From contig CAZDTP010000007.1 in the NCBI GenBank assembly GCA_964508365.1, forward strand, positions 1 to 64,000: 64,000 bases of DNA, read 5' to 3'. The stretch comes from an uncultured archaeon. GTDB taxonomy: Archaea; Asgardarchaeota; Lokiarchaeia; Sigyniarchaeales; SOKP01. Position 1 is the first letter of the stretch. Every line of letters starts with the position of its first letter. The position numbers and the translations under genes were made by a program. Shown piece by piece: positions 7,981 to 53,243 of the stretch. Under the pieces are notes generated by a model that had not been told where the DNA came from, made no database searches, and saw only the letters and a program-made list of their open reading frames with translations.

Positions 7981-8438
7981 TGCTTAAATTATAGATCATA
8001 TTAATCTAATGTTAATTATGAGCTTTAATTCAGTAGAGCTATGGTTGTGTTTACTAGCACCTCTCTCTATTATACTATTTTATAAACAATCAAAATATCT
8101 TGAGAAGAGAATTAATACACAAATATGATCTCTTAGCTAAAGAATACCATCTTAGAGAAAACTCAGAAATTTATCAAAACCTTTCTATAGAAGTAATGGA
8201 AATGCTTACGTTGAGACTTACAATGCTTAGTTTAATGGAATATGTATCGGACGAATCGTTTGAATCAATACCTATAAATTAAATTGTCTATCCTTATGCT
8301 CTTCGGGTTCTTCAGAATTTTACAATGAATTTTTATTTTTTCTTAAAGATTATTGAAATTTATTAATTTTTCGATAGGTAAATTATTAAATATCAATTTT
8401 GATATTATATTTAAAAAAATCAATTATTTACTCCTAGT

Positions 8439-9920
8439 GTGAGAAAATTGGAAGAAAACGATGAACCTTTAACCCCCGAAGAAATAGAGAAACAAAAGAA
8501 GATCGTTGATGACCTATATAGAAAAGAAAAAGAAGATAGAGAAATCTATTTCAAAAACTTCGAGGAGGAACGAAAAGTTGCTTTTGAAGAGAGTAAAAAT
8601 CTTATTTCCTCATCAATCTCAGAGAAAAGTTTCATGAGAGAAAAACAAAGAGAACAAGATTTAATAAGAATGGAGATTAAGCCTGAAATCGAAAAAGCTG
8701 GTGAAGCGATTGAAAAAACCATAAGTGAAAAAGCTTTTATGAGAGAGAAACAAAGAGAAGAAGATCATATCAGGATCGATCTAAAACCGGATATTAGAGG
8801 TGTAGGTGAAGCAATAAGTAAGACTATTGACGATAAGGCTTTTTTAATTGGAAAAAGGAGAGAATCTGACGAACACAGAATGAAGATCAAACCTAACATT
8901 GAACAGACAGGAGAGGTAATCAGTAAAAATATTGACGAAAAAGCTTTTTTAATAGAAAAAAAGAAGGAGAGCGCTTCGGTATTGCTAGATTTAAAACCGG
9001 ACAGACAAACTGCTAGCAGTGCAATTAGTAAATCCATAGAGGAGAAGTCTTTCTTAAGAGAAAAACAAAGAGAAAGCGATCTCAGTAGAATGCAGATCAA
9101 ACCAGACTTTCTGAAAACGGGTGAAGCAATAAGTAAAACAATTGCCGAAAAAGCTTTTAGAATTGAGAAAAAAAAAGAGACCGAACAAAAAAAAAGGGAA
9201 ATACATCCAGATATTGAAGGTAAAGGAGAGGCAATAAAAACAACGATTAACGAAAAAGCATTTAGGATTGATATGCAAAAAGATAAAGAACGAAAAATTA
9301 AAGAGATGAAACCGGATATCAGCAAAGCCGGAGAATCCATTGCCCAATCTATTGGAACAAAAGCTTTTCTACGCGAAACGCAAAGAGAAAAGGATTATGA
9401 GAGAAAAGACTTGAAACCAGATTTTTTAAAAACTGGAGACGCTATTAGCACTACAATAGCTGAAAAAGCTTTTAGAATGGAAAAAAGTCGCGAAATTGAC
9501 GAAAAAAAACGTGAATTAAAACCTGATATAAAAAAAACCGCAGAAATAATTAGCAAATCTATAGAAGAAAAAGCCTTTTTAAGAGAAAAGCACAGAACCG
9601 AGGATTCTAAACGGATGGAAATAAAACCAGACGTAACAAAAGCGAGTCAAGCTATTAAATCTTCAATTGACGAAAAAGCGTTTAGAATTGAGAAGCAAAA
9701 AGAGATGGACCTGAAAAGAATGGAATTAAAACCTGACTTTGAGAAATCTAGTGAAGCTATTCAAAAAACAATTGGGGAAAAAGCATTTATTATTGAAAAA
9801 CAAAAAATACGTGATTCGGAACTAAAGGAACTTAAACCAGATATTAAAGGTATTGGTTCTTTAATCGAAGGTAAAATTGAAAAAATTGAACGGAAGAAAA
9901 AGGACGAGAATACTACTTAA
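8439..9920 (+). CDS. Uncharacterised charged protein made of about 12.5 tandem 35-aa repeats
   Basis: KPD-x4-GEAI-x-K[TS]I-x-EKAF recurs with exact 35-residue spacing from aa 46 to about 480; no TM segment or signal peptide. Confidence 0.85.
   Translation: MRKLEENDEPLTPEEIEKQKKIVDDLYRKEKEDREIYFKNFEEERKVAFEESKNLISSSISEKSFMREKQREQDLIRMEIKPEIEKAGEAIEKTISEKAFMREKQREEDHIRIDLKPDIRGVGEAISKTIDDKAFLIGKRRESDEHRMKIKPNIEQTGEVISKNIDEKAFLIEKKKESASVLLDLKPDRQTASSAISKSIEEKSFLREKQRESDLSRMQIKPDFLKTGEAISKTIAEKAFRIEKKKETEQKKREIHPDIEGKGEAIKTTINEKAFRIDMQKDKERKIKEMKPDISKAGESIAQSIGTKAFLRETQREKDYERKDLKPDFLKTGDAISTTIAEKAFRMEKSREIDEKKRELKPDIKKTAEIISKSIEEKAFLREKHRTEDSKRMEIKPDVTKASQAIKSSIDEKAFRIEKQKEMDLKRMELKPDFEKSSEAIQKTIGEKAFIIEKQKIRDSELKELKPDIKGIGSLIEGKIEKIERKKKDENTT
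8574..9878 (+). repeat. In-frame 105-bp tandem repeat array (about 12.5 units, synonymously diverged)
   Basis: gaaaaagcttt-like cores and aaaccnga cores recur every 105 nt with no indels. Confidence 0.9.
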
Positions 9921-9951: not shown

Positions 9952-10455
9952 CTATAATTGGACATCAAATTTGAATAAAGTATTTAAATTCATATTTTCT
10001 AATCTTTTTTTATATTGTAGAATTGAAGGATCTATGTTTCCATTAAAATTTCTTATTACAGATTCGAACTTATAATAAAAATCTTCCATAATTTGATGTA
10101 AAATTACTCTCTCTACTTGTAAATTGGTTTTTTTCGAAATTCCGATCACTGATAATCTACCTCTCCTTTCATACAAAATTCGACTCTCTTTAAAATTCAC
10201 TTCTTGAATTTCATCGTTTATTGATTCAGGTTTAATCTCACTCATAAAAAGATTAAGCGCATTAAGAAAGCCACTTATCAAATCGTCATGAGAAGAAAAT
10301 TTAGCGTTGCGCGTATATTTTTTGCTAAGCAGTAAAGAACCTGTTATATTGTCTAAGAAGTAAATAGCATGGAAACGATTATCGTCTGAATTAATTCTTT
10401 CTATATTAAATCCATAAGTTTTTTCTAAATTTGTATTAATCCATTTGTATGACAT
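9952..10455 (-). CDS. Stand-alone longin-like (adaptin sigma/mu-N-like) domain protein
   Basis: AIYFLDNITGSLLLSK beta-hairpin, DDLISGFLNALNLF helix, then IQEVNF..SRILY..GRLSVIGIS strands, the typical Asgard longin pattern. Confidence 0.7.
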   Translation of the reverse strand: MSYKWINTNLEKTYGFNIERINSDDNRFHAIYFLDNITGSLLLSKKYTRNAKFSSHDDLISGFLNALNLFMSEIKPESINDEIQEVNFKESRILYERRGRLSVIGISKKTNLQVERVILHQIMEDFYYKFESVIRNFNGNIDPSILQYKKRLENMNLNTLFKFDVQL

Positions 10456-10699: not shown

Positions 10700-11176
10700 T
10701 TGATGAAAATGGGTGCAAATAACAACTACGGAAAACAAAAAAATAAAATTTCGGTTGGTAAAATCTTATCAAGAGAAGATTTCAATTCCACTATTTTCCC
10801 AGAAGATGTTAAAGCAGAAATAAACGAAGCTCCTTATTACTTGCTAATTTTCATTTCTCGCGAAGATTCAATAAAAATTAGCTGCTTTCCTACTAATACG
10901 AGTGATATAAAAAAAATTCTTATTAAGTTAATTGAGTTCTCGCCCGATCTTGTAAAGGGAATATCGACCGTACTTAACGAACTTAACTTAAGTAAAGACA
11001 TCCTGCATACTACGGGAATTTGTTATGAGCTGGAAAATTGCTTCTACGAGACCTATCTGTTAGGAGGCACTCTAAAATCGGGGTTCATGTCTATAGACGC
11101 TATAAAAGAAAAATTCCTCGCAATTGAGAAAATCGTCAATGTCGTAATAGAAGATATACCAATCCATAACGAGTAG
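10700..11176 (+). CDS. Hypothetical protein, C-terminal half possibly ACT-like
   Basis: Coding-like composition; beta-alpha-beta-beta pattern IKKILIKL..PDLVKGISTVLNELNL..ILHTTGIC..CFYETY. The fold is inferred. Confidence 0.6.
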   Translation: MMKMGANNNYGKQKNKISVGKILSREDFNSTIFPEDVKAEINEAPYYLLIFISREDSIKISCFPTNTSDIKKILIKLIEFSPDLVKGISTVLNELNLSKDILHTTGICYELENCFYETYLLGGTLKSGFMSIDAIKEKFLAIEKIVNVVIEDIPIHNE

Positions 11177-11188
11177 ACTTCTCAGAAA

Positions 11189-11395
11189 ATGAGCGATAAA
11201 AAAATACCCCCTCCCCCAACCTTACCCCCTTCTTTTGCAGTATCAGATAATTTCTGTCTGTTTCATAAAGGGGAGTTGTCAGAAGATATTTATACTTGTC
11301 CTAAGTGTAAAACAATTTATTGCCTAGAATGCGCAAAAAAAGCTCAGGCTGATAGGAAATCGTGTATTAAATGTAAACAGATAATTTTATTATAG
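11189..11395 (+). CDS. Small Cys-rich zinc-finger protein (RING/TFIIH p44 C1-like)
   Basis: CxxH-x10-CxxC-x4-CxxC-x9-CxxC spacing after a Pro-rich N-terminus; ATG 12 nt after the upstream stop. Confidence 0.75.
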   Translation: MSDKKIPPPPTLPPSFAVSDNFCLFHKGELSEDIYTCPKCKTIYCLECAKKAQADRKSCIKCKQIILL

Positions 11396-52829: not shown

Positions 52830-53243
52830 TTGGGTATCATGTCTGTAGAAATTGAATCAATTATTGATGATCTCCTCTCTGAAGAAGAAAATATTTTTGG
52901 AGTAGCAATTATTAACAAATCTGGCACGCTTATCACACAAACTGAAAATTGGAATCTTAGCAACGATTTAGAAACGATTAACGAATTGCTTGGAGCCAAA
53001 TTAGAGTTGGGACAACGAGGTATGACAAGTCTAACAATTCAAGGAATTAAATATATGATCGTCGAAAATACTGAAGAAAGAAAGATCGGAACCAATATTA
53101 CGGGAAAAGGTCATGTTATTATATCACCAATTCCAATAGGTGGAACGGGTGCGTTAATTTGTTATATAAATCCTCAAGCCGGACCCCGAGACGCCTTATT
53201 TACCGTTCAATCTTACGCATTGAAACTACAAAAGCTAGTATAA
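52830..53243 (+). CDS. Asgard (Loki-type) profilin
   Basis: IIDDLL..EEN..G.AII...G..ITQTENW, IQGIKYMIVENTEERKIGTNITGKGH, PIPIGG.GALI..NP.AGPRD; closely recalls LokiProfilin-1. Confidence 0.88.
   Translation: MGIMSVEIESIIDDLLSEEENIFGVAIINKSGTLITQTENWNLSNDLETINELLGAKLELGQRGMTSLTIQGIKYMIVENTEERKIGTNITGKGHVIISPIPIGGTGALICYINPQAGPRDALFTVQSYALKLQKLV

Follow-up and report, generated by a model that had tools for sequence, protein, structure and literature searches.

The gene and its repeat array

The DNA considered here is a stretch of 64,000 nucleotides (nt), called the window below, from the genome of an uncultured archaeon of the Asgardarchaeota (Lokiarchaeia, Sigyniarchaeales; GenBank assembly GCA_964508365.1, contig CAZDTP010000007.1, positions 1 to 64,000 of the forward strand). 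Its subject is a gene whose product, referred to as the repeat protein, consists of a head, a long tandem array of 35-residue units, and a tail (Table 1). The gene is present in a single copy in the source genome, which is 100% complete at 4.07 Mb in 149 contigs. An initial reading of the window, made from the sequence only, had proposed that this protein might be a nebulin-like binder of actin filaments.

Table 1. Coordinates of the repeat gene, its parts, and its upstream element in the window
Feature	Position	Strand	Description
Promoter-like upstream element, AT-rich	8373..8419	+	TATA-like core 8398-8419; ends 20 nt 5' of the GTG
Coding sequence of the repeat protein	8439..9920	+	GTG start, 493 amino acids (aa), stop codon within the range; alternative start TTG 8448
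Head, aa 1-45	8439..8573	+	Acidic N-terminus, then a conserved helix (PEEIEKQKKIV..LY.KEKE..)
Unit 1, aa 46-80	8574..8678	+	Degenerate: KVA instead of KPD; core ISEKSF
Units 2-12, aa 81-465	8679..9833	+	Eleven canonical 35-aa units, 105 nt each
Tail, aa 466-493	9834..9917	+	Partial 13th unit (KPDIKGIG..IE..IEKIE.KKK), kept among orthologues

From residue 46 the 35-residue register runs without a gap through twelve full units and a 28-residue thirteenth. Printing the protein in this register confirmed the array as first described, and self-identity is 0.42, 0.40, 0.41, and 0.40 at lags of 35, 70, 105, and 140 residues, while at every other lag below 150 it stays at or below 0.15. The consensus of the unit is K-P-D-[IF]-x-K-x-G-E-A-I-x-K-[TS]-I-x-E-K-A-F-x-x-E-K-Q-[RK]-E-x-D-x-x-R-x-E-[LI]. 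Among the units of the window protein I11, I15, K18, and F20 are invariant (numbers are positions within the unit), and K1, P2, D3, E17, A19, E23, and K24 are nearly so. Each of units 2–12 has a KPD joint, a core with the spacing I-x3-I-x2-K-A-F, and a charged second half. Overall the protein is rich in lysine (17%) and glutamate (16%), with an isoelectric point of 9.0 and no cysteine or tryptophan. Pairs of opposite charge at i,i+3/4 are enriched, at 0.29 compared with 0.22 ± 0.017 in shuffled sequences.

Other parts of the initial description could also be checked. No transmembrane segment is present in the protein, the maximum 19-residue hydropathy being 0.38 and the grand average of hydropathy −1.13. 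The division of the units into two types, in the order AABBABBABABB, was reproduced with a simple rule on positions 21 and 22. The three-unit super-repeat that this order had seemed to suggest did not hold up and was rejected: mean identity between units is flat, at 0.46–0.49, over unit lags of 1–7. At the nucleotide level the copies are old, since Tandem Repeats Finder detects no array in the DNA of the gene, and the synonymous divergence reported for near-identical units is real. In the most similar pair, units 6 and 9, protein identity is 74% and DNA identity 73%, and the same codon is used at just 54% of the identical residues.

The start codon is ambiguous and may be either GTG 8439, which is kept throughout the genus, or TTG 8448, the fourth codon, which is ATG in some congeners and matches the start position in other genera. 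Upstream, the promoter-like element is nearly unaltered in orthologues whose synonymous coding sites are saturated, which suggests, by inference, a separate promoter for this gene and a very short leader. Two antisense open reading frames (ORFs) rich in serine, phenylalanine, and leucine lie within the gene, at 8765-9340 (−, 191 aa) and 9054-9347 (−, 97 aa). Instead of being genes, these most likely mirror the K/E-rich composition of the repeats.

Distribution, period, and origin of the array

A profile search for the repeat protein covered 399 Asgard genomes. Matches were found in 109 of the 134 genomes of the window's own Promethearchaeota family, representing 11 of its 13 genera, and in three of 17 from the order's remaining families; the 247 genomes searched from further Asgard families had none. 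Within the genus, 17 of 18 full-length orthologues, with identities down to 53%, align without internal indels and are 492–495 aa long, and the remaining one is short by exactly one 35-aa unit. The ratio of nonsynonymous to synonymous substitution rates (dN/dS) relative to the window gene is between 0.08 and 0.28. By these comparisons the ORF is clearly a real gene under purifying selection, and one that is conserved, unnamed, and specific to a single family of Loki-type Asgard archaea.

The window protein, with either candidate start, is not in the collection queried by exact-sequence cluster look-up, and a word-indexed homologue search with the full protein gave no match, probably because its candidate list was filled up with words of low complexity. 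An exhaustive phmmer search of 1.84 billion representative sequences gave 48 matches, mostly fragments of the repeat family, with a few shorter relatives. No description of this repeat family was found in the literature on Asgard nebulin-like, Lokiactin-binding, repeat, or single alpha-helix (SAH) proteins.

Conservation within the unit is concentrated in its first part. Across 15 orthologues with 11 units each, P2, I11, K18, A19, and F20 are nearly invariant (the boundary proline is found in 163 of 165 units), while the charged second half varies. Among homologues at 42 loci in public genomes, the most distant of them at ~40% protein identity, the K[AS]F cores are almost always 35 residues apart, and in the rare units of 32 aa the three missing residues fall in the charged second half. 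The sampled genera of the family that have arrays retain both the unit length of 35 aa and the KPD, with between three and ~13 units. One further genus has only a two-unit form, in which the spacing is 37 aa and the KPD is missing. Outside the family the pattern differs: one genome of the neighboring family has 37-aa units without the proline (identity 0.35 at a lag of 37), and in two genomes from a third family the period is ~40 aa. Since units run to these other lengths outside the family, the period is, on present sequences, tightly held within a clade but not universal across the wider family. In some genomes adjacent units are nearly identical over whole runs, so that duplication of entire units still continues.

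In some genera (L139, L140, L138; P0001, P0005) a further basic motif, EKWL[DE]QLKK[HI]RK, follows the tail at the C-terminus; the genus of the window lacks it. This may be an end-specific binding motif or a membrane motif.

The head gives some indication of where the array came from. Together with the first core motif it could be aligned with no internal gap in all the clades compared, and a profile of this combined region finds ORFs of 65–68 aa in all of the genomes searched from two other Asgard families (5 of 5 and 6 of 6), with E values of 1e-9 to 1e-12. These small proteins, which matched no Pfam family, correspond to the head and terminate straight after an x-I-x-E-K-A-x-K motif. On this sequence evidence the head is homologous to them, and because of that homology the array has grown onto an older small Asgard protein by reiteration of its C-terminal end. 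A helical head protein of ~65 aa thus gained its tandem array through repeated duplication of whole units of the C-terminal motif.

Predicted structure and possible partners

The repeat protein was modeled with AlphaFold2, both in full (19 orthologues) and as a four-unit fragment, units 5–8 (18 sequences). The full model has a mean predicted local distance difference test score (pLDDT) of 63 and a predicted template modeling score (pTM) of 0.18. It begins with a long N-terminal helix, predicted with the highest confidence (pLDDT 81–87), followed by a helix of ~30 residues for each unit. In the fragment (pLDDT 81.6, pTM 0.28) there are four helices of 31–32 residues, without a turn at the K-A-F core. 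The helices are interrupted only at the KPD joints, and no tertiary packing is predicted. Neither a compact solenoid nor a coiled coil, the folds named beforehand as speaking against an actin-binding role, is seen in these predictions, which were made from shallow alignments. A Foldseek search of the PDB with either model gave no match. A wide search with VIA-align using the four-unit model gave a best Z of 6.9, to generic long, straight strands of coiled coils such as tropomyosin, lamin, and ROCK, over all 140 residues at a root-mean-square deviation of 11–13 Å, which says no more than that the model is a chain of helices in extended form. The protein is accordingly best described as a predicted extended rod, a chain of single-helix 35-aa units.

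The reading favored here, to which a probability of about one in three is assigned, is that the repeat protein is a multivalent, periodic side-binder or stabilizer of a repetitive partner, possibly Lokiactin. Binding to something periodic is suggested because the core and the helix breaker at the boundary are invariant, unit length is constant while copy number drifts, and no packing is predicted. The protein would be a cytoplasmic, highly charged rod in which each 35-aa unit forms one alpha-helix of ~31 residues. The invariant I-x3-I-x2-K-A-F core would lie in the first two thirds of this helix and a salt-bridged, charged spacer in the last third, with the KPD joint interrupting the helix and resetting its phase. 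The rod would then lie along its partner with one core motif docked on each subunit. We infer the binding, the partner, and the stoichiometry of one unit per subunit. A cytoskeletal filament would be the most plausible kind of partner, and Lokiactin the leading candidate.

The argument for Lokiactin is partly geometric. Filaments observed in situ have a rise of 27.9 Å and a twist of −167.7 degrees (PMC9834061). The repeat along one strand is thus 2 × 27.9 = 55.8 Å, and 35–37 helical residues span 52–56 Å, so that the length of the modeled unit would be compatible with the strand repeat. The candidate partner is also encoded in the source genome. A canonical Lokiactin gene that runs off the end of its contig (349 aa; L065:1495-2640, −, contig C22) is 99.4% identical to those of congeners. 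A second, complete Lokiactin-type gene (L066:1474-2522, +, contig C60) has just 82–83% identity to canonical Lokiactin in each of the relatives, and the genome holds further actin-family genes. Several relatives likewise carry two Lokiactin-type copies.

A number of observations weigh against this reading, and particularly against Lokiactin. Lokiactin is universal in Asgard genomes, while the repeat family is absent from most of them, and no match was found in the three single-contig genomes of the neighboring family. No actin-related gene is found among the conserved neighbors of the repeat gene. Synteny around the gene is kept for more than 15 kb across the whole family, which makes the neighborhood uninformative, and is lost in distant families. 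The number of units, from two to ~13 among relatives overall, means that the protein is not a fixed ruler. Unit length depends on the clade (35, 37, or ~40 aa), and the longer units of distant homologues weaken an argument in which 35 aa corresponds to one actin. The exact period could also derive in part from unequal recombination in register. Finally, the alignments behind both AlphaFold2 runs are shallow, with just 18–19 sequences.

Among the regulators of Asgard actin described to date, the main ones are, to our knowledge, profilins and gelsolins. The profilin that had been recognized in the window is indeed there, as a profilin-like protein of 137 aa at 52830-53243 (+) matching the Pfam Profilin model with 25.9 bits (cut-off 25) and an E value of 1.1e-5, but it is 43 kb from the repeat gene and unlinked to it. 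Co-immunoprecipitation of Lokiactin in L. ossiferum recovered a profilin and gelsolins and, besides these, BAR-domain proteins and an ARF GTPase (PMC13716822). That experiment is silent on the repeat protein, because L. ossiferum would belong to the neighboring family whose single-contig genomes gave no match.

The repeat protein might instead be a passive rod or tether, a semi-rigid spacer of ~60 nm between a partner bound at the head and another at the tail, much like an ER/K helix, with the number of units setting the distance. The conserved head and tail with a variable number of units, the charged and salt-bridged second halves, the extended, unpacked model, and the extra basic motif at the C-terminus in some genera would all be consistent with it. 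A stiff spacer would have no need of invariant hydrophobic and lysine residues in each unit, though, and conserved helix-breaking prolines at the boundaries would be unfavorable to it. A pure spacer is disfavored because the hydrophobic/lysine core is kept in every unit of every orthologue, and this explanation is considered somewhat unlikely.

Self-assembly is less likely still. On a helical wheel the conserved consensus residues would form two hydrophobic ridges on opposite faces of the helix (I4/I11/I15/I22 and A10/F20/L21/L35), through which helices could associate, within or between molecules, into bundles, sheets, or filaments. The confidence with which the long N-terminal helix is predicted is a further point in its favor. 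Even so, AlphaFold2 leaves the helices unpacked (the low pTM of both models), hydrophobic residues make up only about a quarter of the total, and the boundary prolines would disrupt any long coiled coil.

An array of amphipathic helices at a membrane or lipid surface, of the apolipoprotein, perilipin, or LEA kind, possibly coating membrane protrusions, seems quite improbable. Helices punctuated by proline are found in apolipoproteins, and the narrow isoleucine ridge, the K/E-rich composition, and the lack of packing predicted for the protein alone would be consistent with such a role. Against this, the hydrophobic face is narrow, lysine would lie opposite the ridge instead of flanking it and the invariant phenylalanine on the polar face (again from the helical wheel), and the self-identity has no 11-residue periodicity.

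Being lineage-specific and having a strict, selected helical period near the actin strand repeat, the repeat protein is a concrete candidate for a filament-associated protein of a new class. Restricted as it is to one archaeal family, it has little bearing on the origin of eukaryotic actin regulators. Whatever its partner, the family is a clean example of how the duplication of whole units, their length being strongly constrained, can turn a protein of 65 residues into a long periodic rod.

The genes around it offer several separate observations. Between a DUF362 gene and the repeat gene, nearly all relatives have a conserved gene of 247 aa on the same strand, which matches no Pfam family. In the window this region (7981-8438) is truncated, with ~590 nt missing compared with a relative of 92% identity (L021). 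All that remains is an ORF at 8100-8282 (+), corresponding to the C-terminal ~60 codons; the repeat gene itself is intact. The truncation is either a true deletion or an artifact of assembly of this metagenome-assembled genome. The small conserved neighbors at 9952-10455 (−), 10700-11176 (+), and 11189-11395 (+) match no significant Pfam family. The 68-aa protein among them has weak zinc-ribbon/RING-like matches (E ~0.01), and the 158-aa protein has homologues ~6 kb from distant repeat-protein homologues in another family.

Comparison with known repeat families

Comparisons with named families gave few matches. The best Pfam match for the window protein was no better than E 0.07, a scan of 19 orthologues at E ≤ 10 found no Nebulin, TPR, PPR (PF01535/PF13041), or WH2 family, and NCBIfam gave no match for the repeat protein. 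A feature search of the ESM Atlas had no usable match, and a PDB search with the unit profile found nothing meaningful. The idea of a WH2-like motif, one of two alternatives raised by the sequence-only reading, can be set aside, as the WH2 model (PF02205), which describes an amphipathic helix with LKKT/V, has no match at E ≤ 10 in the protein nor anywhere in the genome.

The other alternative was a PPR protein. TPR and PPR repeats (34 and 35 aa) have an equal or nearly equal period, and both share the joint [LI]-K-P-D-[FY] with the repeat protein. In the phmmer search several TPR proteins were matched in the repeat register, with E values from 1e-12 to 1e-5. The family profile matched a designer PPR protein in the PDB (6een; E 8e-4, 21 bits) over 259 residues in a 35-aa register with no net gap. 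The residues common to these matches are the inter-repeat joint and a K-A pair, and when the unit profile was aligned with TPR units by hhalign, only seven columns around the KPD were covered, with a probability of 5.6%. Because nothing more is shared, we take the matches to reflect a joint motif multiplied by a similar period, not homology of the units, and descent of the entire unit from TPR or PPR repeats was rejected. A degenerate alpha-solenoid of 35-aa helix-turn-helix hairpins, stacked in a superhelix and binding protein or RNA, could draw on these matches and on the frequent G, D, or N at position 16, but it is very improbable given the absence of the PPR_2 model from the locus in a six-frame scan of the genome, the continuous helix predicted through positions 16–20, and the charged residues at the core positions of helix B.

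ER/K single alpha-helices are continuous charged helices with an i,i+4 network of E with K or R and no conserved hydrophobic seam. The second half of the repeat unit resembles them in being rich in E, K, and R, and the repeat protein also has the enrichment of opposite charges at i,i+3/4 and helices predicted to be stable while unpacked. In contrast to them, the repeat units have an invariant hydrophobic/lysine core and a strict period. A test for ER/K character found the charge network to be enriched, yet with conserved Ile/Phe cores and proline breaks every 35 aa.

The comparison with nebulin, from which this analysis began, is closer in form than in sequence. The repeat is known from nebulin, nebulette, LASP, and N-RAP. 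Arrays in nebulins comprise ~22–185 modules with a seven-module super-repeat, and are accompanied by SH3 and other terminal domains. The modules are 31–38 aa long, mostly 35, each with two helices and in contact with three actin subunits; a proline is often found at position 5 and S-D-x-x-Y-K at positions 18–23, with Tyr22 fully conserved (bioRxiv 10.1101/2021.10.06.463400). Neither the window protein nor any of the 19 orthologues is matched by the Pfam Nebulin model (PF00880) at E ≤ 10, and in a six-frame scan of the genome this model has no match at the repeat locus and two weak ones (E > 1) on other contigs. In the repeat unit the proline is at position 2 and E17-K18-A19-F20 takes the place of S18-D-x-x-Y22-K. 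The nebulin serine is not kept (position 16 is D, A, E, or G), the aromatic residue is phenylalanine in 161 of 165 units where nebulin has tyrosine, and position 21 is L, R, or M, so that only [ED]-x-x-aromatic is common to both. The invariant lysine inside the core has no counterpart in nebulin. The arrays are of a different size (2–13 units), the flat identity between units shows nothing like the seven-module super-repeat, SH3 and other nebulin end domains are absent, and the array, having arisen from an Asgard protein of ~65 aa, has an origin independent of nebulin.

The nebulin-like register proposed at the outset therefore stands as a description of layout and falls as a claim of homology, so that the initial interpretation is partly supported: the repeat protein is nebulin-like in layout only, with no kinship, and any similarity would be convergence. 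A full functional analogy, with the protein as a convergent archaeal counterpart of nebulin or nebulette, each I..I..KAF core docking one Lokiactin subunit along a strand and the whole stabilizing filaments, or gathering them into bundles, in protrusions and the cell body, is improbable; if true, this would be the first prokaryotic actin side-binding protein of the ruler type. What the two do have in common is a tandem series of mostly helical modules of ~35 aa without a globular fold (as predicted here), a single proline near the start of each module with an acidic-x-x-aromatic core 15–18 residues further on, and a module length close to that of one actin subunit along the strand.

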